Shown here: positions 4,243 to 60,382 of the stretch, one piece after another
Position numbering within the stretch: position 1 is the stretch's first letter
How the letters are laid out: each line of letters starts with the position of its first letter
Made by a program: the position numbers and the translations under genes
Assembly: GCA_965249275.1 (NCBI GenBank)
Contig: CBDFLQ010000005.1
Span: forward strand, 323,030-387,029
Length of the DNA: 64,000 nt
Reading direction: 5' to 3'
DNA from: Dehalococcoidia bacterium
GTDB taxonomy: Bacteria > Chloroflexota > Dehalococcoidia > Plut-88900
The notes under the pieces: model-generated
Databases searched by the model: none
Told to the model about the DNA's origin: nothing
Seen by the model: only the letters and a program-made list of their open reading frames with translations

Positions 4243-5000
4243 TGAGAATTGTACCCTCCGTCTATTAGAAAGCTGGCTCCGGCCACGTATTCAGCATCGT
4301 CGGAGGCTAGGTAAAGGGCGAGCTTGGCGACGTCCTCGGGCACACCCATCCGGCCCACGGGTATGCCATCTGCGTATTTGGCAGCGATGGCTGGGGAACG
4401 AGAGACGCGTCGGGAGCCGGGGGTGTCGATCACACCGGGGACGATGCAGTTAACACGTATCCCACGCTCGCAATACTGGCTACTAGCGGTTTTGGTCAGC
4501 TGGACTATGCCAGCCTTGGTGACTGAGTAGGGCAAAGAGAAGGTGCTCCCCCGGAGCACGACTGCCGATGAGATGTTGATGATGGCCCCACCGCCGCCTT
4601 TCAGCATGGCGGGTATGGCGTACTTGCAACTTAGGAAAGGCCCCTTCAGAAACAACCCCAGTCCCGAGTCCCACTCCTCTTCAGTTACCTCGGCGACGGG
4701 GCCGGTCTCAGTTTGGCATGCAGCGCCGTTCACCAGGATATCGAGGCTGCCGTGCCGGGCCAGGGTGTCATCCATGAGGGTCTTCACCTGTGCTGAGTCG
4801 GTGACATCAACGCGGCGGAACTCGGAGCCTGCCCCCATCTCCTTAGCCTCGGTCACCGCTTGCTCCCCACCTGCTTCGTCTACGTCGGCGATTATGGTAA
4901 ATGCGCCTTCCTCGGCAAAGAGGAGAGCCGTGGCTCGGCTGATGCCCGATGCCGCACCCGTGACTATGGCCACCTTCCCAGCAAGCTTGCCGTTCATCAT
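4239..5000 (-). CDS. Short-chain dehydrogenase/reductase (FabG-like SDR)
   Basis: 253 aa. TGAASGIS Rossmann motif, a NISS-type motif, and YSVTKAG (the YxxxK catalytic motif). Confidence 0.9.
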   Translation of the reverse strand: MMNGKLAGKVAIVTGAASGISRATALLFAEEGAFTIIADVDEAGGEQAVTEAKEMGAGSEFRRVDVTDSAQVKTLMDDTLARHGSLDILVNGAACQTETGPVAEVTEEEWDSGLGLFLKGPFLSCKYAIPAMLKGGGGAIINISSAVVLRGSTFSLPYSVTKAGIVQLTKTASSQYCERGIRVNCIVPGVIDTPGSRRVSRSPAIAAKYADGIPVGRMGVPEDVAKLALYLASDDAEYVAGASFLIDGGYNSQ

Positions 5001-6239: not shown

Positions 6240-6718
6240 CCCTCCTTGAAAGGTTGTTTGGGGTTCGGGGCTTGGGGGAGAGTATATATCAGGCGGTAAA
6301 TCTTATGATTATCTCTGAATGTTTCTGATTGCTTCCGTGGCTGTTTGATTGATCCGGGGAGAATGTTCCCGCGGGCCTCGGGGGGATGAGCGTCGGGAAA
6401 AGGCGGGAATGCGTTGAAAGGCATAGGGCATTATAGGGAGGTGGGGTGGGGGTGGGGCAAGGGGTTCATGTCACTCGCCGAGGCGAGTCTTCGACTCTCC
6501 TCAGCGAGCCTACGGCCCCATCCCCTTTCACGCGGGAGGGGACACCCCCCGCTTGACCCTTCGAGTGCGTCAGGGTGAGCGGCCCCTCCCTGGGATTCAC
6601 ACCATGTCATACCTGCGGTTCTAAAGTCACAAACGAAGTGCACCACCTGATGAGGGTGCGTCGTGGGAAGAGGTGTTGGGGGTGGATAGGCCGTACTTCG
6701 TGAGCGCGCAAGTCCTAG

Positions 6719-7999: not shown

Positions 8000-8617
8000 G
8001 TGAACGAGATGGATATAGACGTTCCCCGACCAGCGCCGGAGGACGGAAGGAACTTCTTGCGGGCGCGATGGAAGATTATTGTGCCGCTGCTTCTCTTATT
8101 TGCCGGGTTGGTGGCGGTGTTGGTGTGGGGGGCGCTGGACAAGGACTCGGCCACGGGGGGGAGCGGGGCGACCAGGCCGGGCAAGGAGGCTCCCGCATTC
8201 TCGTTGGAATCATTCTCTGATGGGATGGTGTCGCTGGCCGATTTCGAAGGGCAGCCGGTGATCATCAACTTCTGGGCGTCGTGGTGTGCACCGTGTCGAC
8301 AGGAAATGCCGGCACTGGAGGCGACCTGGCAGCTGTTCCGAGAGCGGGACTTGGTCATTGTGGGTATCAATTTGCCTAAAAGTGACCCCGAGGAAAGCGC
8401 CCGAGCATTTCTGGACGAGTTCGGCATAAGTTATCCAAACGTCTTCGACACGAGAGGGTTTACGGCTATCGACTACGGGGTGTCGGGGATACCGGTTACA
8501 TTCTTCGTGGACAGGGAGGGTGTCGTGACCCGGAGGTTTGTGGGGACGCTTACTGAGGGTTCGTTGATGGTGTGGGCGGAAGAGTTGGTGGGGGGTGGGG
8601 AACCCTCACCCCCTTAG
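8000..8617 (+). CDS. TlpA/ResA-like membrane-anchored thiol:disulfide oxidoreductase
   Basis: 205 aa. One N-terminal TM helix and a thioredoxin-fold WASWCAPC active site. GTG start at 8000, or ATG at 8009. Confidence 0.85.
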   Translation: MNEMDIDVPRPAPEDGRNFLRARWKIIVPLLLLFAGLVAVLVWGALDKDSATGGSGATRPGKEAPAFSLESFSDGMVSLADFEGQPVIINFWASWCAPCRQEMPALEATWQLFRERDLVIVGINLPKSDPEESARAFLDEFGISYPNVFDTRGFTAIDYGVSGIPVTFFVDREGVVTRRFVGTLTEGSLMVWAEELVGGGEPSPP

Positions 8618-8713
8618 TCCCCCTCTCCCTTAGGGCCTTCAAGGGAGAGGGGGAGAAAAGAATAGGGGCACCCATCTGCGCAAAGCGCAGATGGGTGCCC
8701 CTAATTCGATACC
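8598..8713. repeat. Two-hairpin interspersed element (family D), possible intrinsic terminator
   Basis: Hairpin 1 is CCCCCTCTCCCTT...AAGGGAGAGGGGG. Hairpin 2 is a perfect 18-bp stem (8664-8681 / 8685-8702). The conserved tail is CTAATTCGATACC. Overlaps the last ~20 nt of the TlpA-like gene and extends past its stop. Confidence 0.7.
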
Positions 8714-8894
8714 TGGAAACCACATCCAGAATCCACTTGACCCTTCGACTGTGCTCAGGGTGTGTGGCCCCGCCTCCCCAGGGGTGGGATAGGACCCGAC
8801 ACCACTCCGTCCCTGGATTCCTGATTTCTACAGGAATGACGAATAAGGGCGAGTTTGAACAGGGGGTCGGGGGAGATATAGAATAGGGCTAGTC

Positions 8895-16447: not shown

Positions 16448-16572
16448 GGGGGAACCCTCACCCCCTTGGTCCCCCTCTCCCTTAGGGCCTTCAAGGGAGA
16501 GGGGGAAAGAAGAATAGGGGCATGCATATGCGCTTTAGCGCATATGCATGCCCCTAATTCAGTACCGGGGGA
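16448..16572. repeat. Two-hairpin interspersed element (family D), copy 2
   Basis: Same flanks and first hairpin as 8598..8713. The second stem (16516-16555) has a different sequence but is again perfect. Begins ~37 nt after the stop of the FadH-like gene. Confidence 0.7.
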
Positions 16573-16825
16573 GGGGAAAAGGAGGAGAGATTGGGGATTG
16601 GGCGATGTTGTGGGGCCTAGTTCGGTGCAGGTGGGGAGGGGAAAGGAAGAGAGGTTGGGGTTGGCGAATGTTATGTGGCTAGTTCGGTGCGGGGAAGGGG
16701 GAAAGGAAGAGGGGTTGGGGGTTGGGCGTCGCTATGTGGTCAATTCAGTACGGGGGAGGAGGGAAAAGGGGCGAGGTTGGGGATTTGGTGATGTTGTGTG
16801 GACTAGTACGAGAGGGAGGGGATGG
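16555..16825. repeat. Degenerate tandem repeat, ~62-63 bp unit, ~4.3 copies
   Basis: Unit starts at 16555, 16618, 16680, ~16742 and 16804. Consensus TARTTCRGTRC..GGGGRAGGGGAAARGRAGAG.TTGGGG.T.GG.G.TGTT.TGTGG. G-rich on the + strand. Confidence 0.8.
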
Positions 16826-26726: not shown

Positions 26727-26926
26727 ATGGGGCTCTCTAGGAACACTTTCACCCTCACCCTCACCCTCACCCTAGCCCTCTCCCATCGAGGGAGAGGGGA
26801 CTGGACCTCCCCGCCGCCCCTCGGAATGAGGATTATGCAAAGGTCTCATCGACGGAGAGGGGATGGGACCTTCCCCGAGTATCCGGGGAGGCAGGTTGTG
26901 CAGGCTTGTAAGGAAGGCACACTCAG

Positions 26927-28216: not shown

Positions 28217-28412
28217 GATAGCCTCGATATCACTCTCACCCTAGCCCTCTCCCATCAAGGGAGAGGGGATTGGACCCCGCCCATTCCGTTCTTGAGACCC
28301 TTCGACTCGGCTCAGGGCGAGCGGAATACCCCACACCTCTGTAAAAGTAGATGACAATGGACCAGGCGCGTCACGCCTGGTCCATTTGCATTTCTCAGGA
28401 AATGGCGAGCGG

Positions 28413-28661
28413 TTAGCTCTTTACGTATTCGACGCGGGGGAGCATGGGGTCGAACATGCGCTCGAGGGCCATGGTGTGGCTGCACATGTTCCAGGAGGTG
28501 AAGAAGCCGCAGTCGCATCTGAGGATGCCGTCGTCATAGGTGACGTTGTGGCGCTGGTGGGCACCTCGGAAGCTAAGGCTGAAGTTGTTGAACTGCACCC
28601 TGTCGGGCTCTTCAGCGTAGGCCTTGGCCTTCTGTATCTTACCTATGAGACTTGACTGCAT
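28413..28661 (-). CDS. SWIM zinc-finger small protein
   Basis: 82 aa. CDCGFFTSWNMCSH fits the CxCx(n)CxH SWIM signature. Confidence 0.65.
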   Translation of the reverse strand: MQSSLIGKIQKAKAYAEEPDRVQFNNFSLSFRGAHQRHNVTYDDGILRCDCGFFTSWNMCSHTMALERMFDPMLPRVEYVKS

Positions 28662-28914: not shown

Positions 28915-29517
28915 GATATTCAGTTGGGCTTGGGTTTTGGCTGGTTTGTTGGGGAGGGAGTAGGCGATGGAAGGTCGGTGACTCTTGGGCAGGGGCGGGA
29001 GGCCAACCTGCGATGACCCCACGTGTCTTTTAGCTAGGCGGACGAGGTGAGTGGGGTGTTCTCGTCCACAAGACGCTTGGCTCGACCATTCGGAGGAATG
29101 GGAGCACGAACCCGCTGCCGTCGTCTACCGAACGGAACTCTCGGATGGTGACGACGGTGGAGTCCCATAAGGGCTCGATGGCCCTTAGCAAGCCCTGCAT
29201 AGGCGGGCTGTTATATTTCGCTGAGCTATGCGCATAGCTTAGACTCGAACGCGCCGGGTGAAGGGTGCGTCGAGTAGGCCGGTCTCGCAAGCCTACATGC
29301 TGCTTAGAGTCGATGGACCTCCCATCGCCTGATGGGTGGGGGAAGGTTGAGCCGGGGCCTTAGGTATGAGGAGATGGCGGCTTTCGCTTGAGCCGTGGGG
29401 CGGTGTGGGCCGCCCTTTGGGATGGGCTGGGACGTTGAGTCCTCGTGTGGGCCGGGGATGGTGTTCCCCCTGGGTTGTGGTTCCTCCTTGGGTTTTGGGT
29501 GAGTGACGGGCCAGTCG
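28915..29517 (-). ncRNA. Candidate large structured ncRNA, copy E1 (unclassified family)
   Basis: Has its own TTGACC-N18-TATATT promoter. The ~180-nt 5' domain and the C/A-rich 3' tail are conserved with 48306..48939. A 15-bp long-range helix (28962-28976 / 29316-29330) closes a 339-nt hairpin-rich insert. No reading frame is conserved between the copies. Confidence 0.45.
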
Positions 29518-29523
29518 AGGATG

Positions 29524-29553
29524 AATATAGTACATGTGTACAAGTCTGGTCAA
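29524..29553 (-). promoter_or_regulatory. Sigma70-type promoter of E1
   Basis: On the minus strand, TTGACC (29553-29548), 18-nt spacer, TATATT (29529-29524). The hexamers and the 18-nt spacing are identical at 48946..48975. Most of the spacer and ~20 nt upstream are also conserved. Confidence 0.6.
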
Positions 29554-29662
29554 GGGGTTGGTGTCACTTTCGGGCCTCACTCAGCTATGACGTCTATTGG
29601 CCTGGACGCACTGAGGCTCCTACAATGAAGGCCGAGCGGCAGTATCCTGACTGCATCAGATC

Positions 29663-30460
29663 ATGATTGCTTCCAATCTTCAAAGGGTTGTCCACAACGC
29701 GCTTGGCCCGGAACCCGACTCACGGGTCGGCAAAGTCCTATCGGTGTCCCTGACTGCCCTAATTGTCTTGAACATCACCGCTCTGGTTTTCGAAACAGTC
29801 GATGAGATTCACGACCTATCGCCGCGGGCCTTTGGGGTCTTCGAGGCCGTGTCAGTGGGCGTGTTCACAATCGAGTATCTGCTGCGGGTTTGGAGCTGTG
29901 TCGCCGACCCAAGATATTCCCACCCGATATCAGGACGATTGAGATTCATCGCATCTCCCCTAGCCCTCGTAGACTTGATAGCCATACTCCCTTTCTACGC
30001 AGCCCTACTCAACCTTTTTGGGCTGGACTTCAGAGTATTGCGGGCAGCCCGACTCATGGGACGCGCAGCTAGGTTGGGGCAATATTCCTCCGGTCTACGA
30101 ACCCTTGGACGAGTCGTGCAAGCCAAGAGAACCGAACTGGTAACGGTAATAATGGTGCTATCGCTTCTCCTGCTGCTGTCATCCTCCTTGATGTTCTACG
30201 CCGAAAATGACGCTCAACCTGACGTCTTCTCCAGCATACCGGAGACCATGTGGTCGGGAATCATTACTCTGACTACAGTCGGCTATGGCGACGCATACCC
30301 GATAACGGCGGTGGGACGTACGCTAGCGGGGTTGATGGCGGTCTTGGGAATAGGTCTTTTCGCCCTACCCGCCGGTATCCTGGGGTCGGGCTTCATTGAA
30401 GAGGTGCAGCATCGGGTGGGGCGGGGTAAGACGTGCCCTCATTGTGGGGAGCAACTATAA
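29663..30460 (+). CDS. Ion-transport (voltage-gated-like) potassium channel
   Basis: 265 aa. TM helices including an Arg-rich S4-like segment (RVLRAARLMGRAARL). TTVGYGD selectivity filter. Confidence 0.85.
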   Translation: MIASNLQRVVHNALGPEPDSRVGKVLSVSLTALIVLNITALVFETVDEIHDLSPRAFGVFEAVSVGVFTIEYLLRVWSCVADPRYSHPISGRLRFIASPLALVDLIAILPFYAALLNLFGLDFRVLRAARLMGRAARLGQYSSGLRTLGRVVQAKRTELVTVIMVLSLLLLLSSSLMFYAENDAQPDVFSSIPETMWSGIITLTTVGYGDAYPITAVGRTLAGLMAVLGIGLFALPAGILGSGFIEEVQHRVGRGKTCPHCGEQL

Positions 30461-30552
30461 CGAATAATCCCACGAAATCTAAGCAATGAGGGACGGGGAC
30501 CAAAATCAAGTAGAGGCGACCGTTCAACCTCTGTGCGGAAGGATACAGAGTA

Positions 30553-31041
30553 ATGGTATTTAAGTGGATCAAAGATATATTTGTAGGCGACTCTGGTGAC
30601 GAGCCCACAAAAAGGGGTAGCTCTCAACGCATGAACATCGACATAGCATCCTTTAGCCGGGGCGATTATGTGGTTGACATTGTTGGGGAGTCTCACTACG
30701 TTGATGCACTTAAACGCGCCAAACAAGGAGCAGAAAAGGACGGGAGCAAGAACGTTGTCACCACTGTCCTTGTGCGAGAGCCCGACAACAAGTTCGATAA
30801 GAACGCGATACAAGTATGTGCAGTTGTGAACGAAGAAATGGAACCTGTAGGATATCTGAGTCGCAACACAGCTCGGGACTACCGCAAGGCCGTAGACCTG
30901 TGGCAAAGAAAGGGATACTTCGTCAGCTGCAAGGCTGCATTATTCAGCAGTGAGGGAAGGAAGGCCAATATAGGCGTTTGGCTGGACTTACCCACCCCCG
31001 ATGAGATCGAAAAGGACTATGCTCAGCAATTCCCTGGCTAA
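30553..31041 (+). CDS. HIRAN-domain protein
   Basis: 162 aa. IVGESHY...VLVREPDNKFDKNAIQV......VGYLSR matches the HIRAN pattern. The gene is AT-richer than its neighbours. Confidence 0.6.
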   Translation: MVFKWIKDIFVGDSGDEPTKRGSSQRMNIDIASFSRGDYVVDIVGESHYVDALKRAKQGAEKDGSKNVVTTVLVREPDNKFDKNAIQVCAVVNEEMEPVGYLSRNTARDYRKAVDLWQRKGYFVSCKAALFSSEGRKANIGVWLDLPTPDEIEKDYAQQFPG

Positions 31042-44966: not shown

Positions 44967-46244
44967 CAGTTAGACCGAGGACATAGGTAACACTTTGACT
45001 GGGGTTTTGTCGACCCTTCTGGTGGGGTCATCAAGGAGTCCGATGATGAGTGGCCCGAACTGTATGGACCAGGTTCGTTCGTCTATCTGGACCAGGCCGA
45101 TGGGTTCGCCCTTGAGGGACTCGCTCACGTAGAGCATATCTCCCTTCCACTTGATCTGTCCGTTGCTGCGGACACTACGTACGGTGACACCGGCGTTGTA
45201 CTCGGGCGAGCTGATACGTGTGGGATAGGGTCTGATCGAGGGCGTGTACAGCCGGCTTGGTGGTTGCTGCCCCAGGGCCTCATGTGGCCTCTCGAAGTTG
45301 TAGGTGTGTCTGAAGCGTTCGAGGGCTCTGCGTTGTCGTCTCCAGTTGGCCTTTGGAGGTGTTGCGGTCTCGGCCTTGAGGGTCCGGTGAAGGCGCTCGA
45401 TGCGTCCATTCTGTTCGGGGTGACCGGGCTCTATGCGTTCGGGTACGATCCCGAGCTTGACCCACCATGCTGAGAGTGGTGAGAGGCTGCCCAGACCCAC
45501 ACTGGCGAAGGGCGGACCATTGTCGGTGCGTATGGCCCGAGGGATGCCGTACTCTCGGAAGGTTCTCTCCAGAGAGCGCTTGACTTCCGGGCCGGCAGGG
45601 CGGTCGAGAGGGTCGCATACCAGTAAGTAGCGGGACATGGCGTCCTGGGCTGTAAGGGGGTCTATCCGCATTCCGTCATCCGTGCGGAACCAGCCCTTCA
45701 GGTCGATGGCCCACACGTCATTGGGGTGCCGGGCGTGGGCGAAGGGCTCGCCCCAGCGTGTAGCCCTGCGCCGCCGCTTGCGCCGCCTCACCAGACCCAC
45801 ACGGTCCAGTATGGCGCCCGCAGTACTGGAGGAAGGCCAGGGCACGTAGGGCTCGATGGAATGCAACCAGGCGACGATCTTCTTCGGGCCCCATGTGGGA
45901 TGGGTGCGCTTCGCCTCGATGATACGCTTAGCCACCTCTATGGAAGTGGCGTTGGGATGGCTGTGAGGAGCCCGGCTTAGGTCAAGTAGACCGTCCTCAC
46001 CATACGCCTCGTATCGGCCGATTATCTTGTAGCCCGTCTTGCGGCTGATCCCGGACCGGCGGCACAGCTCAGCAATAGTCTCCTCTCCCGCAGTGTGACG
46101 CTCGATGAACTGCAACCGCTCCGATTCTATGCTCGTGTCTTTCCAAGGCAACACATCTTCCTCCTCTGGGATTGCCTAATACAATCCCACGATGTGTTAC
46201 CCATGTCCCCGGTTTATGTGTTACCTTTCTGCCCGGTCTGTACC
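44943..46244 (-). mobile_element. IS481-family insertion sequence, copy B (inverted relative to copy A)
   Basis: Shares the sequence of 33138..34439. Inserted inside a family-C repeat (ATCACCCTCAC | IS | CCACCCTAGCCCTCTCCC). Confidence 0.85.
44970..46154 (-). CDS. IS481-family transposase
   Basis: 394 aa, identical to 33228..34412. Confidence 0.9.
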   Translation of the reverse strand: MLPWKDTSIESERLQFIERHTAGEETIAELCRRSGISRKTGYKIIGRYEAYGEDGLLDLSRAPHSHPNATSIEVAKRIIEAKRTHPTWGPKKIVAWLHSIEPYVPWPSSSTAGAILDRVGLVRRRKRRRRATRWGEPFAHARHPNDVWAIDLKGWFRTDDGMRIDPLTAQDAMSRYLLVCDPLDRPAGPEVKRSLERTFREYGIPRAIRTDNGPPFASVGLGSLSPLSAWWVKLGIVPERIEPGHPEQNGRIERLHRTLKAETATPPKANWRRQRRALERFRHTYNFERPHEALGQQPPSRLYTPSIRPYPTRISSPEYNAGVTVRSVRSNGQIKWKGDMLYVSESLKGEPIGLVQIDERTWSIQFGPLIIGLLDDPTRRVDKTPVKVLPMSSV

Positions 46245-46592
46245 CACCCTAGCCCTCTCCCATCGAGGGAGAGGGGATAAGACCCGCCCCAATTCCGCTC
46301 TTGAGACCCTTCGACTCTGCTCAGGGCGAGCGGAATACCCCTACCCTAGGAATGGAAACGCCGTACTTCGTGTGCCGGTCCAAAGGCCGGGATGACGGGT
46401 AGGGACCACGAGGGACGGTTCTGAAGAGAGGTTAGTGGATGGGCAAGTCCTAGATCCCTCGCGGGGCCGCGGGATGAGAAGGGGTTGGGGGTGGTTTCTT
46501 CGGGACGCACTCCGTACCGGTTAGCGTGGAGGACTTGGGGGCGTGCTATACTCTAGCCTCGCCGGAGGAGCCGGCCCTCGCCTCGTTGAGCC

Positions 46593-48218
46593 ATGACTAA
46601 ACTCCGAGCAGCTCTCGCCCAGATCAACACCACCGTCGGCGACCTGCGAGGCAACACGGCCAAGATTCTCGAGTATATCGACCGGGCCCGGGCCGAGGGC
46701 GCCGATCTCGTAACCTTCCCCGAGTTGACTATCACGGGCTACCCCCCCGAAGACCTGCTCTATAAGCACAACCTTATTCGCGATAACCGCGAGCGTCTCG
46801 ACGAGGTTATCGAGCATTCGGTGGGGATTGCCGTGGTAGTCGGGTTCGTCGATAGGGATGGGGAGCTTTTCAACGCCGCAGCGGTGATACAGGACCGGCG
46901 GCTTCTCGGCATCTATCACAAGATCCACCTGCCCAACTACAGCGTCTTCGACGAAAAGCGGTATTTCCAGTCGGGCAGTGAATGTCCGGTCTTCGACATC
47001 AACGGGACGTGCGTCGGGGTGAACGTGTGTGAGGACATCTGGTTCGAGTCGGGGCCGACCAACGTCCAGAGCAAGGCCGGGGCGCGGATCATCATGAACA
47101 TCAACGGCTCGCCCTATCACCGGGGCAAGGGCCGGTTCAGGGAGCAGATGCTGGCCGACCGGGCACGGGACAACGGGGTCTACGTCTTCTACACCAACCT
47201 GGTCGGGGGGCAGGACGAGCTGGTATTCGACGGAGGAAGCTGCGTCTTCTCTCCGTCGGGGGATGTGCTGGCGCGAGGCAAGCAGTTCGAAGAGCACCTG
47301 CTTATGGTGGATATCGATCCCGACGCCACTCACCCCGCCGTCGACCCTGCACCCGAGCCCGCTCTCGCCGACCTGGAAGAGGTCTACGAGGCACTGACAA
47401 TCGGGACGCGGGACTACGTTCGAAAGAACGGCTTCGAGAAGGTCGTAATCGGGCTGTCGGGGGGGATCGATTCCACATTGACGGCAACCATCGCAGCGGA
47501 CGCCCTTGGGCCTGAGAACGTGGTCGTCGTGACAATGCCGTCCCGGTACTCGTCGGAAGGGTCGATCGCAGATTCTGACATCCTGGCGAAGAATCTCGGA
47601 GTGAAGCTGTGGAACATCTCGATTGAGGACATGTTTCAGTCGAGCCTCGACTCGCTGGACCCGCTGTTTGCGGGCACGGGGTCGGGCGTCGCGGAGGAGA
47701 ACCTGCAGGCCCGGATGCGGGGCAACCTGCTGATGGCGATCTCCAACAAGTTCGGGTGGCTGGTGCTGACCACGGGCAACAAGAGCGAGATGGCGATGGG
47801 CTACGGCACGCTGTACGGCGATATGGCCGGGGGGTTTGCGGTGATCAAGGACGTGCCCAAGGTGCTGGTCTACGAGCTGGCCGAGACCCGCAACGCCCGG
47901 GGCCCGAGCCCGGTTATCCCTCAGAGCGTTATCGACAAGGAGCCCAGCGCAGAGCTGCGCCCCGACCAGAAGGACACCGACAGCCTGCCTCCCTACAGCG
48001 TTCTTGACCCGGTGCTGGAGGCCTACGTGGAGCAGGACAAGTCTCCGGCGGACATCATAGGCATGGGGTTCGACGAGGAGATGGTGAAGCGGGTGATCAA
48101 GGCGGTGGACCGGAACGAGTACAAGCGTCGGCAGGCGGCGCCTGGGGTGAAGATCACGCCGAGGAACTTCGGGCGGGACCGCCGGATGCCGATTGTGAAT
48201 TGGTATCGGGGGTTTTGA
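46593..48218 (+). CDS. nadE: Glutamine-dependent NAD+ synthetase
   Basis: 541 aa. N-terminal nitrilase/CN-hydrolase domain plus a C-terminal NAD synthetase domain with SGGIDS. The 814-aa minus-strand ORF here is spurious. Confidence 0.95.
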   Translation: MTKLRAALAQINTTVGDLRGNTAKILEYIDRARAEGADLVTFPELTITGYPPEDLLYKHNLIRDNRERLDEVIEHSVGIAVVVGFVDRDGELFNAAAVIQDRRLLGIYHKIHLPNYSVFDEKRYFQSGSECPVFDINGTCVGVNVCEDIWFESGPTNVQSKAGARIIMNINGSPYHRGKGRFREQMLADRARDNGVYVFYTNLVGGQDELVFDGGSCVFSPSGDVLARGKQFEEHLLMVDIDPDATHPAVDPAPEPALADLEEVYEALTIGTRDYVRKNGFEKVVIGLSGGIDSTLTATIAADALGPENVVVVTMPSRYSSEGSIADSDILAKNLGVKLWNISIEDMFQSSLDSLDPLFAGTGSGVAEENLQARMRGNLLMAISNKFGWLVLTTGNKSEMAMGYGTLYGDMAGGFAVIKDVPKVLVYELAETRNARGPSPVIPQSVIDKEPSAELRPDQKDTDSLPPYSVLDPVLEAYVEQDKSPADIIGMGFDEEMVKRVIKAVDRNEYKRRQAAPGVKITPRNFGRDRRMPIVNWYRGF

Positions 48219-48305
48219 GGGGAGGGGGTGATTCGCGATTGAGCGGAATTCCCCGCCCCAGATCCCTCGTGGAGCCTCGGGATGACATGGGGGCAAGCCC
48301 GCTGA

Positions 48306-48939
48306 GATATTGAGTTGTGGTGGGAGCTTGGTTTTGGTTGTTGGGAGGGGGCAGGCGATGGAAGGTCCGTGACTAGAAACCAGGCCGGGGGTTGCTGCCG
48401 AGCCGTCGGCACCGGGCTGGATTATCCCCACACGTTGCCGGCTGTGGTCAGGGTTGTGTGGGGCAGATCCCAAATCGTGAGCGGCACATGACCGGACCGC
48501 TGACGTGGAAGATGCCGCCTGAGGCGGTCTTTCAGAACCGGCGTCCCGGTGCATCCGCCGGGTAGACGGGTGGCAGGGACGGCGGGACAAACAAGGACAC
48601 GAGGGCCTTGCTAAACCGGTGGTCGGTTGACCTACCGGGAAAACCGGCACGCAATGGGCCGGGGTAAACGCACCCGATGATGGGGGGCGTTGAATCGGCA
48701 GGGGCGTCGTTGGACGGGGCCTGCCGAGCATAGTCTGTGGATCTTCCATCGCCTGGGTTGCGGGGGAAGGTGAGCCTGGGCCTTTGGTATGAGGAGATGG
48801 CGGCGTTTGCTTGAGCCGGGCACTGCTGATGCAGAGCCACGGGATGGGCTTAGACGTTGAGTCCTCCGGTGGGCCGGGGCTGTGGTTCCCCCTGGGCTGT
48901 GGTTCCTCCTTGGGTTTAGGGTGAGTGATTGGCCAATCG
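48306..48939 (-). ncRNA. Candidate large structured ncRNA, copy E2 (same family as 28915..29517)
   Basis: Same promoter, 5' domain and 3' tail as E1. The closing helix 48353-48367 / 48740-48754 encloses an unrelated 372-nt insert. A hairpin at the equivalent position has a different sequence but remains paired. Confidence 0.45.
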
Positions 48940-48945
48940 GGGGTG

Positions 48946-48975
48946 AATATAGTACAGATGTACAATTCGGGTCAA
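48946..48975 (-). promoter_or_regulatory. Sigma70-type promoter of E2
   Basis: On the minus strand, TTGACC (48975-48970), 18-nt spacer, TATATT (48951-48946). Confidence 0.6.
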
Positions 48976-49045
48976 GGGGTTCGTGTCACTTTTGGGGGGG
49001 AGGGGTTATCCTAATCCATCAAGGGATAGGGGAGAGGACAGATAA

Positions 49046-52000
49046 TTGAAGGACAGCACACACGAACAAACGCTAAACGTCGCACTGGGCGAAGTTCTCA
49101 ATGAACTACGGCGAAGCTGGAATGCCCGTAGCGAACGGACGGGGAACGTGCTAGTAGAAGGTGGCCGCCCCGACATCCTAGTGGAAGAGGCGAGCGGATG
49201 GCCTATCGTCATTGAGGCTGAACGCAGCAATCATACAGAAGCAGAGGCTGACGCCAAGGCGCGGTTAGGGCTTACGGTCGCCAATACCGGAAGGCAGATA
49301 GAAACAGCGATCGCCCTTGTCTACCCCTCCGAACTTCACACGCTTGACGGTTCCGCACTGCGCAAAGAGATAGGCCAAACCCAAGAGTTGGAATATGCAC
49401 TGTACACCCGCCGAGCTGAAGAAGAACCGGAGCGTTTACCCACGCAAGGATGGATAAAGGGTGGGGTGCGGGACCTGGCGATGCTGGTACAGCGGGCGGC
49501 GGTGCCTCCACCCAGGATCGAGGCTCTGGCTACTGAACTAGAGAATGGAGTGCGGATTGCAGGGGACGAATTTACGCGGAGGCACAAATACGGAGGTGAA
49601 TTGGGAGCGCGAGCAGCTAAGGTTCTGGGTCAGGATGATGATGCCGAAGGCCAGACACGCAGAATGGTTATGACCGTTATAGCTAATGCACTAGTTTTCC
49701 ATGAGTCCCTGGCAGAGGCCGAATTCCTAATTGAAGAGAGCGAGGGAGGCCCTGAACGCGCAGTGCGACCCGTCGCCCACTTCCGTCCCGGAGGTTTGTT
49801 TGCCCACGCTGACCTTTGCTTGGAATGGGAACGCATCCTGCGCATCAACTACTGGCCCATTTTCTGGTCCGCCAAAGAGATGCTGGGCCTAATGCCCACC
49901 CACACGGCCCACGCAGTGCTAGACCGGCTCTGGCATACCGGACAGAAGCTGGTTGCGGGCGGTGTAACACGGTCTCACGATCTGACGGGGATAATCTTCC
50001 AAAGGCTCATTGCCGACCGCAAGTTTCTTGCGACCTACTATACCCGGCCTGAAGCAGCGGCGCTCCTGGCGGCTCTGGCTTTGCCCGCGGACAACCCACT
50101 GGGCGGGGCAAACTGGGGAGACGAGGAGACACTAGCCAGTGCACAAATTGGAGACTTTACCTGTGGGACGGGAACCCTGCTCTCGATGGCGTACCAGAGG
50201 ATGACTTTGCTCCACGAATTGCACGGCGGTGACCCTCGCAAGCTTCACAGGCCGATGATGCGGCACGGGCTGGTAGGCCTAGACGTCCTTAACATCGGCG
50301 TTCACTTGACGGCGGCTATGCTGGCGGGAAGCCATCCCGATACTCCGTTCGATGGGGAATGCCTATTGACAATGCCCTATGGCAAGCAAGGCGACAAAAG
50401 TGTTGCTATAGGGTCCCTGGAATTGCTGGCACCATTTGTACAATCGTCGTTTATTGACACTGCAACGGCGGTGTCGGCAGGGGGCAGGTCTCCTGAAGCT
50501 GTTCAAGACATAGTGGATCGGACAGGGAATGGGAAGTTCGATCTGGTAATTATGAACCCACCCTTTGTGCGGTCCACTGGAATGGAAGGTGAGAAGCTAG
50601 CCAAAGGCAATTCGGCATTCGCAGGCCTAAAGAATGACAAGCCCACACAAAAGAAGATGCAAAAGCGCCTAGTCTCCCTTAGGGGGAGTGCGCCACTTGG
50701 TACTGGGAACGCGGGGCTTGCAGCAGATTTCTTGGATGTTGCATTGCGCAAAGCCAGGCAAGACGGGATCATTGCTCTGGTGCTACCGCTCAGCGCAATT
50801 AGTGGTGTGGTATGGGAGATGGCTCGCAAGACAATCTTCAAGGAATGCACGGATATCGTCACAGTAACCATAGCAGGTGCTCGTTCTGATGAGTCCTCTT
50901 TCTCTGCCGATACAGGCATGGCCGATTGCTTATTGATTGCTCGCAAGGGTGGGGAAGACGATGAGAAAAGGGGTATTTTCGTAGTGCTGCACAAAAGCCC
51001 GAGGTCAGCAGTTGAAGCCGAATTACTTGCAGCTGAGATCGCGAGAGTTCGACAACCCGGCCGCATGGCGACGGTGGAGCACATGGATGGTGAAAGCACA
51101 ATTATCATAGGAGGGCAAGAATACGGAGTGGTTCTTGATGCTCCACTTCCTGAGTCCGGGCCGTGGCCTTTGGTGGGGATTCGGGATGCGGAGGTCGCCC
51201 ATGTAGCTTGGACTCTCGAGCGAGGGGCTTTGGTGCAACTTGGGCGGCCTGGACACGAGTCTTTGAAGTTGCCAATCGTTGCCGTCGGAAAGATTGGTGG
51301 ACGAGGGCCCTATCATGCAGACATCTACTGGAGTCAATCAGATGGAACTCCACGCGGCCCTTTTGAGTTGATTAGACCGGCGGTCAACCCTGTTCCAACA
51401 TATCCAATGCTATGGGCTCACGACGCCAAGAAGGAGCGAAGACTGGTTTTGAAACCTGACTCCGAGGGGCGAATAAAGCCAGCATCGGGAAAGATGACTG
51501 AGGATCGAATCACGGATAAGGCTGCACAAATTTGGGTGACAGCGACACGGGCTCATTACAATCGAGACTTGCAGTTCAATTCGCAATCTTTGATTGTGGC
51601 GATGACTAACCGGCCTTGCATCGGAGGACGGGCTTGGCCATCGGTCATCTTTCAGGACCCGGAGTATGAATATGCATTTGCATTGTGGTGCAACTCTACG
51701 TTGGGCTTACTGATGCACTGGTGGGCAACCAACAAGACGCAATCGGGGCGTGGGACTACTACAGTCACGGGCATCCCTAACATTCCTACGGTAGATGTGC
51801 GAACGCTGACAAAGAAGCAGTTGGGCGAGGCAAAAGACGCTTTCAATGTGATGAAAGGGTTGCGCTTCCTTCCCTTCGACCAGATAGACGGGGATCCGGC
51901 TCGTGCAGAGTTGGACCGACGCCTGCTGGTGGACGTGTTAGGTCTGCCGGAATCGCTAGTGGTTGCTGGAGGACCAATAGACTTGTTGAGGCGCAAGCTA

Positions 52001-52090
52001 GCCCGCGAGCCACAGATTCATGGGGGTAAGAAGTCGCGGGTTGTGTTTCAAGATGATGGGGAACGGTCAGAGCAACGTACGGACCGTTGA
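49046..52090 (+). CDS. Single-polypeptide nuclease-like + gamma-class N6-adenine DNA methyltransferase (type IIG/IIL-like RM candidate)
   Basis: 1014 aa. N-terminal PD-(D/E)xK-like block GRPDILVEE...WPIVIEAER. AdoMet motif I GDFTCGTGTLL, then motif IV FDLVIMNPPF. A ~400-aa C-terminal region is a putative specificity domain. Lower GC than the flanks. Confidence 0.65.
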   Translation: MKDSTHEQTLNVALGEVLNELRRSWNARSERTGNVLVEGGRPDILVEEASGWPIVIEAERSNHTEAEADAKARLGLTVANTGRQIETAIALVYPSELHTLDGSALRKEIGQTQELEYALYTRRAEEEPERLPTQGWIKGGVRDLAMLVQRAAVPPPRIEALATELENGVRIAGDEFTRRHKYGGELGARAAKVLGQDDDAEGQTRRMVMTVIANALVFHESLAEAEFLIEESEGGPERAVRPVAHFRPGGLFAHADLCLEWERILRINYWPIFWSAKEMLGLMPTHTAHAVLDRLWHTGQKLVAGGVTRSHDLTGIIFQRLIADRKFLATYYTRPEAAALLAALALPADNPLGGANWGDEETLASAQIGDFTCGTGTLLSMAYQRMTLLHELHGGDPRKLHRPMMRHGLVGLDVLNIGVHLTAAMLAGSHPDTPFDGECLLTMPYGKQGDKSVAIGSLELLAPFVQSSFIDTATAVSAGGRSPEAVQDIVDRTGNGKFDLVIMNPPFVRSTGMEGEKLAKGNSAFAGLKNDKPTQKKMQKRLVSLRGSAPLGTGNAGLAADFLDVALRKARQDGIIALVLPLSAISGVVWEMARKTIFKECTDIVTVTIAGARSDESSFSADTGMADCLLIARKGGEDDEKRGIFVVLHKSPRSAVEAELLAAEIARVRQPGRMATVEHMDGESTIIIGGQEYGVVLDAPLPESGPWPLVGIRDAEVAHVAWTLERGALVQLGRPGHESLKLPIVAVGKIGGRGPYHADIYWSQSDGTPRGPFELIRPAVNPVPTYPMLWAHDAKKERRLVLKPDSEGRIKPASGKMTEDRITDKAAQIWVTATRAHYNRDLQFNSQSLIVAMTNRPCIGGRAWPSVIFQDPEYEYAFALWCNSTLGLLMHWWATNKTQSGRGTTTVTGIPNIPTVDVRTLTKKQLGEAKDAFNVMKGLRFLPFDQIDGDPARAELDRRLLVDVLGLPESLVVAGGPIDLLRRKLAREPQIHGGKKSRVVFQDDGERSEQRTDR

Positions 52091-53315: not shown

Positions 53316-53541
53316 GGGTGTCCGCGATAGGACCTTCGCGTACCTATACTGTAGGCTTTCCGGAATCACCCTCACCCTAGCCCTCTCCCATCGAGGGAGA
53401 GGGGATAAGACCCTCCGCTCATACTTCGAGAGCCTCCCGCCTCGGCGGATCTATGACAGCACGAGCGGCCCCGCGCCCCCCAACACAGGCAATGCAGAGG
53501 TTACGCCTTAGTGCATCTGCGACTCGTCACGAGAGGGGGAA

Positions 53542-56537: not shown

Positions 56538-56640
56538 AACGGCCTGGCCCCTTGAGGCATTCATGGTAACAGCCACTGCGCCCGGAGATAGGGATCCCGG
56601 CGCGGGGTCTCCGGATGACGATTCAATCGGCATGTCTGCG

Positions 56641-56757
56641 GGGGAACCCTCTCCCCCTTGGTCCCCCTCTCCCTTAGGGCCATAAAGGGAGAGGGGGAGG
56701 GATGAACAGAGGCAGACGCCTGTGCGTTAGCACAGGCGTCTGCCTCTAGTTCGGTAC
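56641..56757. repeat. Two-hairpin interspersed element (family D), copy 3
   Basis: Conserved first hairpin (CCCCCTCTCCCTTAGGGCC...AAGGGAGAGGGGG). The second stem is a perfect 18 bp (56708-56725 / 56730-56747) with a third, different sequence. The tail is TAGTTCGGTAC. Confidence 0.7.
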
Positions 56758-56781
56758 TTGGGCGGGGGGACAGGAGAAGTA

Positions 56782-59629: not shown

Positions 59630-59718
59630 GGGTAAGTGCCGGAACCGGCAGACGGGCTATCCTGCCAAGATAGTGGCCCTTCGTGGTCGTAGGGGTTCGA
59701 TCCCCCTCTTACCCACCA
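59630..59718 (+). tRNA. Class II (long variable arm) tRNA, Leu-type scaffold, anticodon GCC (isotype/anticodon mismatch)
   Basis: Hand fold. Acceptor GGGTAAG/CTTACCC, U8, D arm CCG-GAACCGGCAGA-CGG, anticodon stem CTATC/GATAG with loop CTGCCAA (GCC at 59664-59666). 17-nt variable arm, T arm AGGGG-TTCGATC-CCCCT, A73, encoded CCA. Confidence 0.7.
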
Positions 59719-60293: not shown

Positions 60294-60382
60294 GCCGTAG
60301 TGGTGGAACTGGTAGACACGCCCGGCTTGCACCCGGGTGGACTAATCGTCCGTGCAGGGTTCGAATCCCGCCTACGGCACCA
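60294..60382 (+). tRNA. Class II tRNA, Leu-type scaffold, anticodon UGC (isotype/anticodon mismatch)
   Basis: Hand fold. Acceptor GCCGTAG/CTACGGC, D arm GTG-GAACTGGTAGA-CAC, anticodon stem CCCGG/CCGGG with loop CTTGCAC (TGC at 60328-60330). 16-nt variable arm (GGAC/GTCC stem). T arm GC(A)GGG-TTCGAAT-CCCGC with one bulged A. A73 and encoded CCA. Confidence 0.6.

Follow-up and report, generated by a model that had tools for sequence, protein, structure and literature searches.

A predicted family of large structured RNAs with a common shell and several core classes in uncultured Dehalococcoidia

The window analyzed here is a whole stretch of 64,000 nucleotides (nt) from the Dehalococcoidia bacterium assembly GCA_965249275.1 (contig CBDFLQ010000005.1, positions 323,030 to 387,029 of the forward strand). 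Within it, the gap between nadE (46593-48218, plus strand) and a gene encoding a 1,014-amino-acid protein (49046-52090, plus strand) is wholly taken up by one element, E2, lying on the minus strand. The original prediction, made from the sequence of this window, described E2 as the second copy of a large RNA candidate whose first copy, E1, lies at ~28915-29569, both having a conserved shell around entirely different cores. The features of E2, its paralog, and its divergent neighbor are as follows.

48306-48995, minus strand: whole E2 element, a predicted noncoding RNA gene of ~640 nt
48983-48991, minus strand: upstream motif AAGTGACAC, 5' of the -35 box, at which similarity between copies begins
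48946-48975, minus strand: sigma-70-type promoter, TTGACC (48970-48975), an 18-nt spacer, and TATATT (48946-48951), score 10/12
48905-48909, minus strand: 5' strand of helix P1, GGAGG, Shine-Dalgarno-like, without a start codon after it
48761-48894, minus strand: conserved 5' domain of 135 nt with helices P2 to P6, scoring 123.7 bits with covariance model R1 (E value of 2e-23)
48886-48892 with 48762-48768, minus strand: helix P2, GGGGGAA/UUCCCCC
48872-48881 with 48773-48782, minus strand: helix P3
48862-48866 with 48791-48795, minus strand: helix P4', GAGGA/UCCUC
48841-48861, minus strand: near-invariant CUCAACGUCUAAGCCCAUCCC, unpaired in the P4' model, parts of it paired by RNAalifold
48819-48838, minus strand: P5, a variable hairpin
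48801-48818, minus strand: P6
48786-48804, minus strand: conserved GCCGCCAUCUCCUCAUACC
48739-48755, minus strand: 5' strand of the closing helix, CAGGCGATGGAAGATCC, continued by GACUA at 48731-48735
48369-48738, minus strand: core of type C, a multi-hairpin arm of ~370 nt
48352-48368, minus strand: 3' strand of the closing helix, GGACCTTCCATCGCCTG, preceded by UAGUC at 48371-48375
48306-48349, minus strand: 3' strand of P1, CCUCC (48344-48348), and a C/A-rich unstructured tail ending in CAACTCAATATC (48306-48317)
28915-29569 (approximate), minus strand: E1, paralog of E2 bearing a core of type A; 141 bits with R1
49046-52090, plus strand: type IIG/IIL-like nuclease-methyltransferase gene, 1,014 amino acids, divergent from E2

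E1 has the same layout as E2, and the promoter, 5' domain, closing helix, and C/A-rich tail that the two had been predicted to hold in common were all found where they had been placed; the E1 promoter (29553-29524) is an identical counterpart of that of E2. The two shells are 87 to 88% identical over blocks of 156 and 57 nt (alignment A1). One shell 19-mer, for which 0.04 occurrences would be expected in the window, is present there in exactly two places, and a covariance-model search of the window found no further copies. The cores of E1 and E2 were not significantly alike, again as predicted, giving z scores of 0.8 to 1.1 in global alignments against dinucleotide shuffles. Aligning the E1 core with the reverse complement of the E2 core gave a z score of 0.4, so the difference between the two cores is not an inversion.

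About 16 related loci were found among metagenome-assembled genomes (MAGs) and metagenome contigs, and those with organism titles are Dehalococcoidia. Scanning the shell 19-mer over one genome per species gave 52 matches, 7 of which were real by BLAST. Three Dehalococcoidia MAGs carry copies, namely OZ240215.1 (L001, L018, and L029), CBDCTF010000007.1 (L012, L023, and L037), and OZ244800.1 (L022); the matches in Actinomycetota and elsewhere had, by BLAST comparison only, no similarity to E past the seeded 19-mer region. A first pattern run on metagenomes had no matches, and a second one independent of the 19-mer, GAGGACTCANCNTCNNAGCCCATCCC, recovered two more divergent metagenome copies, L053 and L054. 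A six-frame pseudo-protein query hit two spurious called open reading frames (ORFs), leading to L055, and the DNA upstream of homologs of the 1,014-amino-acid protein yielded L060, L061 (two genes, L061a and L061b), L063, and L064. BLAST of E2 against 50,697 phage records and 72,556 plasmids gave no match, and scans of viral contigs gave only chance matches in AT-rich sequence lacking other shell motifs. The family is thus restricted to a narrow group of uncultured soil bacteria, which are Dehalococcoidia where the records name an organism and have at least two to three copies per genome.

No known RNA family accounted for these loci. At gathering thresholds, Rfam 15 matched only one tRNA in the whole window; at an E value of 10 or below it matched nothing in E2, and in E1, L053, and L054 it gave weak matches to eukaryotic or viral families or a 16-nt partial Fluoride match, far below threshold. 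The element thus falls outside the families of Rfam 15, including OLE, GOLLD, ROOL, HEARO, group I and II introns, RNase P, tmRNA, and 6S RNA. Literature searches found no description of the E family.

The promoter is among the parts held in common. All canonical copies aligned (alignment A2, 9 copies) had the -35 box and, in the matching column positions, a -10-like hexamer, which in L018 has shifted to TACTAT with its position kept, and the GTGACA within AAGTGACAC was invariant in the same alignment. A similar layout, GTGACA..CCCTTGCCC-N..-TATAAT, precedes a peptidase gene at 6455-6476 in the window, so AAGTGACAC looks like a general promoter form in the host organism. E2 is therefore a gene that we predict, from the sequence, to be transcribed from its own promoter. 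At the other end, no intrinsic terminator and no terminator-like site were present on the E2 strand, and the 3' tail folded no better than shuffled sequence (z score of -0.58). The C/A-rich tail resembles a Rho loading site, and termination is probably factor dependent.

E2 does not encode a protein that we could recognize in any copy. When all copies were translated, stop codons occurred in every frame, frames shifted between copies, and indels, including 2-nt ones, were not multiples of three; a protein-coding element was rejected because no reading frame is kept between copies. An 814-amino-acid ORF does span E2, antisense to nadE and without a Pfam match. The copies contain 35 to 42% C, 21 to 24% G, and 14 to 17% U, and long ORFs run across the element because stop codons need A and T/U, of which this strand has little.

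The RNAs folded far better than their shuffles (z scores of -4.6 for E1 and -5.4 for E2, which mark the range for the E RNAs). In the RNAalifold consensus, the GGAGG of P1 pairs with the CCUCC of the 3' tail. The P1 5' strand region, AAGGAGGAACCA, is kept in 10 of 11 canonical copies (alignment A3); L054 has GGAGA for GGAGG and CUCUCUC as its tail. The 5' domain with P2, P3, P4', P5, and P6 was common to all canonical copies in which it was folded, and the most conserved sequence of the family consists of CUCAACGUCUAAGCCCAUCCC and GCCGCCAUCUCCUCAUACC, which form invariant columns in alignments A2, A3, and A5. Around these, the helices change in sequence and stay paired. P3 goes from AGCCCCGGCC/GGCCCCGGCU to CGAGACC/GGUCUCG, and P5 remains a hairpin in E2, L001, L054, and L061 although its sequence differs widely among them; L053 lacks it. 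The closing helix, of 16 to 17 bp and enclosing ~370 nt in E2, covaries in its inner part, from GGUCC/GGACC to GACG/CGUC in L054, L063, and L061.

Compensatory changes were counted in two alignments. When the shell was simply aligned with MAFFT, 95.7% of cells were paired and 5 pairs had changed on both sides, compared with 1.1 in shuffles, 1 in 500 of which reached that number. In alignment A7, a covariance-model alignment of 15 rows (14 copies and one weak spurious match), 94% of cells were paired and 11 of the 31 pairs of the 5' domain (18 cells) had changed on both sides; shuffles gave 2.3 ± 1.3 pairs, with 0 of 500 reaching 11, and slid controls gave at most 4. Compensatory substitutions that keep base pairs are thus present, among sequences that are few and related. 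These results point to a noncoding, structured element under selection for RNA pairing, and they bear out the prediction of an RNA gene in which the shell is conserved and the inner domains can be exchanged.

The cores told a different story from the one first proposed. They had been described as a hypervariable cargo, a description that does not fit. The type C core of E2 is 84 to 89% identical to those of L018, L055, L022, and L029, from three other genomes (the same range applies over the whole element), and the type A core of E1 is 82 to 84% identical to two others, those of L037 and L012. Besides types A and C, there are type B (L023 and L001), an L053 type, an L054/L063 type, and an L061a type. 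Types A and C and the L053 and L060/L064 cores are linked by significant similarity through type B, with alignment z scores of 15 to 17 for E1-L023, 6.6 to 7.2 for E2-L023, 5 to 7 for E2-L053, and 22 for L023-L064. The linked cores have recognizable hairpins in common, and one hairpin pair changes from C-G to U-A. The L054/L063 and L061a cores showed no detectable similarity to any other core. The expectation that further copies would have different cores in one conserved shell thus held in part: some cores are indeed unrelated, but classes recur, and even those of E1 and E2 are joined by intermediates. Since cores of one type are 80 to 89% identical between genomes, they appear from their sequences to be under constraint, as discrete conserved classes that are neither hypervariable nor cargo-like. 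An invertible DNA segment was rejected, as no core was found in both orientations; reverse-complement alignments among five representative canonical core classes all gave z scores below 2.

The conservation of cores bears directly on the proposal that they act as guides, decoys, or cassettes against foreign DNA or RNA. A conserved scaffold around inner segments that differ does recall the layout of guide RNAs, and some neighbors are of defense type (the restriction-modification [RM]-like gene, and the HIRAN gene, whose protein matches PADLOC weakly). However, the phage and plasmid records held no match, the viral contig matches were due to chance, and no core match longer than 14 nt, nor anything above chance, was found elsewhere in the window. 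The cores are also long folded domains conserved between species rather than short variable spacers. We regard this proposal as scarcely credible.

Cores also enlarge by internal duplication, a ~120-nt unit being doubled in L064 and a ~40-nt unit repeated in L061a. Such fast modular evolution, together with the four tandem ~50-nt hairpins of L061b, would suit sponge or decoy RNAs like CsrB/RsmZ, which would soak up an RNA-binding protein, or the G-rich ribosome-binding sites of mRNAs, through C-rich single strands or repeated hairpins. Several paralogs per genome with one promoter form would suit them too, and the excess of C over G in all copies means that many C residues must be unpaired. 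But no motif runs through all core classes, most GGA triplets of the shell lie inside helices, and a precisely conserved, covarying 5' fold is untypical of sponge RNAs. A sponge is, on this balance, distinctly unlikely.

Shell and core do not travel together. The 5' part does not cluster by core type: those of L012 (type A) and L023 (type B), in the same genome, are 93% identical, and those of E2 and L018, both of type C, are only 71% identical. Because the 5' part groups unlike the core, shell and core have different histories, which from the sequences points to recombination or gene conversion between paralogs. The family is wider still, as seen from three long-form copies.

4750-5624 of L060, minus strand: long-form copy
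1330-2140 of L064, minus strand: long-form copy
~12050-12950 of L061, minus strand: long-form copy (L061b)

L060 and L064 keep the promoter, the closing helix (AUGGAAGGUCC/GGACCUUCCAU), and a B-like core, and their 5' region is different, longer, and not recognized by the covariance model. L061b joins a longer 5' region of the same type to another closing helix (CCAGCGCUCCC/GGGAGCGCUGG) and to a core whose four tandem hairpins bear GCGGAUG. The long-form 5' region contains AAGGAGUCCCAUG, followed by an open frame of 138 to 251 amino acids rich in R, P, and S. The first ~80 amino acids of this frame are alike in L060 and L064; it is a candidate frame, either coding or spurious.

The neighboring 1,014-amino-acid protein had been called type IIG-like. 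Its motifs PD..ExE (PD-(D/E)xK-like), FxGxG, and NPPF are invariant in 33 homologs, and the best Foldseek matches of a predicted model of moderate quality (predicted local distance difference test score of 61) were BpuSI, DrdV, and PglX, with E values of 4e-8 to 2e-7. A PDB sequence search with the protein found nothing, and the matches to Eco57I and methyltransferase profiles were weak. It matches the plan of type IIG/IIL enzymes, which combine in a single chain of ~1,000 amino acids an N-terminal PD-(D/E)xK nuclease, a methyltransferase of the gamma N6-adenine class (FxGxG before NPPF), and, at the C terminus, a region for recognition. From the motifs and the fold matches, the label is right. 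The protein has more than 2,000 homologs, of which the top 120 are 63 to 88% identical to it and ~1,014 to 1,069 amino acids long or N-terminally shorter; such uniformity is unusual for an RM-type gene. The homolog at L066 lies in an island with integrase and HicB genes.

This gene had been assigned to an accessory block. It is not a sporadic neighbor; it is the only neighbor of E conserved between genomes. An E-family gene lies upstream and divergent at six of the seven loci whose protein is at least 79% identical (the window, L037, L060, L061, L063, and L064), with an IS1595 element between the two genes in L063; the seventh locus, L067, is cut by an insertion sequence (IS) at the contig end. 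The paired loci all differ from one another in core type and in the far flank of each gene. Their similarity does not extend past the ends of the ORF, so the pairing is not part of a larger conserved block.

Such persistence favors a partnership in which E RNAs work with the enzyme, the shell binding it or controlling its expression and the other copies serving as extra RNA partners. Several observations tell against it. Three homologs at 74 to 75% identity (L062, L065, and L066) have no E within 13 to 15 kb, most E copies have no enzyme gene within 8 kb, and the spacer between E and the enzyme gene, 70 to ~375 nt, shows no conservation. Nothing in the protein points to an RNA-binding module, its appearance being that of an ordinary enzyme of the BpuSI/DrdV type, and the E family may simply be confined to the subclade that shows the pairing. 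We consider a partnership of this kind unlikely. A stricter form of it, in which E RNAs would be RNA subunits of the enzyme, the shell docking and the core altering recognition or timing, is a long shot; if true, it would make this an RNA-modulated RM system.

Apart from this gene, no protein gene is a constant partner of E, most of its neighbors being IS elements or genes of metabolism and housekeeping. E1, E2, L012, and L029 each face a convergent gene downstream, so E is not a leader on its own strand. The opposite, G-rich strand could instead be the functional one, as a long structured leader of the divergent upstream gene (RM-like, K+ channel, or transposase). The upstream gene is antisense to the E promoter in about 9 of 13 examined copies, and wobble counts do not settle the strand. 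Nevertheless, chance would give 50%, and 9 of 13 does not depart far from that. It is on the C-rich strand that the promoter has kept its sequence and spacing, and in L029, L001, and L054 the upstream gene ends beside E. An antisense leader is accordingly very improbable.

The DNA adjoining E promoters has a lower GC content, as had been proposed for the promoter-side regions, and it varies in content. Between fabF and the acetyl-CoA hydrolase gene, the window has E1 with the K+ channel and HIRAN genes. L063 is syntenic with the E1 locus and carries at this place a type Y element together with IS1595 and the RM-like gene; in L054 the orthologous K+ channel gene stands on the other side of the E copy in a different orientation. 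These differing contents around E indicate that rearrangement breakpoints coincide with E copies.

Near E1, the K+ channel and HIRAN-domain genes adjoin the element at 29663-31041, and the HIRAN protein is the weak match to PADLOC candidate PDC-M03B. On the other side lies an 82-amino-acid ORF (28413-28661, minus strand) with a CxC...CxH (SWIM-like) motif, no Pfam match, a downstream hairpin, and its own promoter, TTGACC-17-TAAAAT (28761-28733); it is 82% conserved in L063.

IS elements stand near some copies in variable positions (IS5 at L012, IS30 at L023, IS1595 at L063, and IS481 at E2 and L022), and most loci have none. An IS481-family transposase gene (44970-46154, minus strand) lies between hisS and nadE, ~2 kb from E2, and a similar one lies ~2 kb from the L022 copy. 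A dispersed DNA repeat or nonautonomous mobile element with conserved ends, incidental structure, and a repeat-derived promoter would account for the unrelated contexts in different genomes, often beside an IS, and these genomes are full of repeats like repetitive extragenic palindromes (REPs), with REP-like DNA just upstream of GTGACAC. By eye, however, the borders of 12 copies showed no obvious terminal inverted repeats or target-site duplications, against the suggestion of a nonautonomous element with conserved ends, and no transposase stands in a constant position. The only long inverted repeat is the internal closing helix. Compensatory changes, like the hairpins that have been preserved, speak for selection on RNA pairing, and the cores are conserved between genomes. 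We find a mobile element quite improbable, and membership in miniature inverted-repeat transposable elements or other nonautonomous transposons was rejected on the same inspection by eye of the ends.

Immediately before GTGACAC lies one or the other of two REP-like elements, and even L018 and L055, copies otherwise 95% identical, differ there. A REP-like element at 6455-6520 (minus strand) ends in GAGTGACATGAACCCCTTGCCC..TATAAT before the peptidase gene, and the same REP-plus-promoter layout precedes the L018, L037, L060, and L061b copies; its recurrence before several E copies suggests a dispersed repeat carrying or abutting an outward-facing promoter. Many short families of REP-like palindromic repeats run through the window (D2, D3, D5, and D12 to D16), for example at 26761-26812, 28230-28332, 46238-46341, 48240-48287, and 53366-53417, and one at 48255-48287 lies just beyond the end of E2. 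A 140-nt repeat with three copies in the window (8596-8735, 16448-16587, and 56640-56779) also stands directly upstream of the L022 promoter (4444-4573), and similar sequence precedes L055 and L061a. Elsewhere in the window, ARAGORN called two unusually long tRNAs of 89 nt each, Gly-GCC and Ala-UGC (59630-59718 and 60294-60382), in a stretch of lower GC (0.51 to 0.54), only the second reaching the Rfam tRNA threshold. Two blocks of a 72-nt tandem repeat with 12 registered copies (239-2234) are probably a repetitive coding region.

Known RNAs offer partial likenesses. E resembles OLE, GOLLD, and ROOL in its size class of ~600 to 800 nt, in its many conserved helices, in forming stand-alone genes in restricted taxa, and in that function cannot be deduced from sequence. 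Unlike these, it has no Rfam 15 match, is very C-rich, and has inner domains that are interchangeable among the several paralogs of a genome. Phages or tRNA genes accompany many GOLLD and ROOL loci, and E showed neither association. The multiple paralogs, the common promoter form, and the modular evolution by duplication of hairpin units recall CsrB/RsmX-Z, but E lacks a repeated loop motif common to all copies, has a large conserved 5' fold, and is ~3 times larger. A scaffold joined to a differing segment is also found in the omega RNAs of IscB/TnpB (HEARO), IS110 bridge RNAs, and retron msr-msd RNAs, the last with a closing inverted repeat around the variable part. In E, by contrast, the differing part is a folded domain of 330 to 400 nt conserved between species, without an Rfam match. 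The flanking ORFs scanned and the Pfam labels of called genes contained no IscB, TnpB, IS110 recombinase, or reverse transcriptase domain. A retron RNA was rejected as no reverse transcriptase gene is adjacent, and an omega or bridge RNA was likewise rejected, the nearby transposases being of the IS481, IS5, IS30, and IS1595 types in variable positions. RNase P RNA, with one slow-evolving and one more variable domain, is an analogy of architecture only; E has no sequence or model match to it, is multicopy, and shows no sign of a housekeeping role.

Taken with moderate confidence, our reading is that E2 is a stand-alone gene for a noncoding RNA of ~640 nt, one of a lineage-restricted family with two to three or more paralogs per genome, acting in trans as a two-module scaffold or adaptor. 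The RNA would be transcribed from its own strong promoter, end in the C/A-rich tail, probably by a factor-dependent route, and fold into a Y shape with its ends joined by the short helix P1. One arm would be the 135-nt 5' domain, displaying ~40 invariant nt that are unpaired in the P4' model (CUCAACGUC..AGCCCAUCCC and CCAUCUCCUCAUACC) and that may bind a partner common to all paralogs. The other arm would be the paralog-specific core of 330 to 400 nt, clamped by the helix of 16 to 17 bp, evolving fast by divergence and by duplication or replacement of subdomains and presumably giving each paralog a second specificity. It is the combination of a conserved arm with a paralog-specific arm that leads to a trans-acting scaffold or adaptor of two modules. 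Homologous recombination between paralogs within the shell would reshuffle shells, cores, and flanks, and we propose that E copies lie at boundaries with variable DNA because of such recombination.

Several points weigh against this reading. The 5' domain is not universal, as a different one goes with the retained promoter of L060, L064, and L061b, two of which also retain the closing helix. No partner for the invariant unpaired stretch was found within the window, and no motif common to all core classes was found. The covariation comes from few and related sequences, and A7 was fitted to the model. The wobble test, with 9 G-U against 6 A-C, was uninformative, so the choice of strand falls to the promoter alone. 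Finally, a stable trans-acting scaffold or adaptor in a ribonucleoprotein is suggested by the architecture only.

Bacterial noncoding RNAs of more than 500 nt with conserved folds are rare, and OLE, GOLLD, ROOL, and HEARO each led to unexpected biology. The E family is apparently a previously undescribed group of large, modular, structured RNAs. What is unusual in it is that several paralogs per genome combine one shell with different large folded domains, that shell and core show evidence of recombination, and that one copy is persistently paired with an RM-type gene. The ~16 sequences, together with the covariance model and the coordinates, make a defined target, in a soil lineage of which little is known, for metatranscriptomics, for solving structures, and for finding partners.

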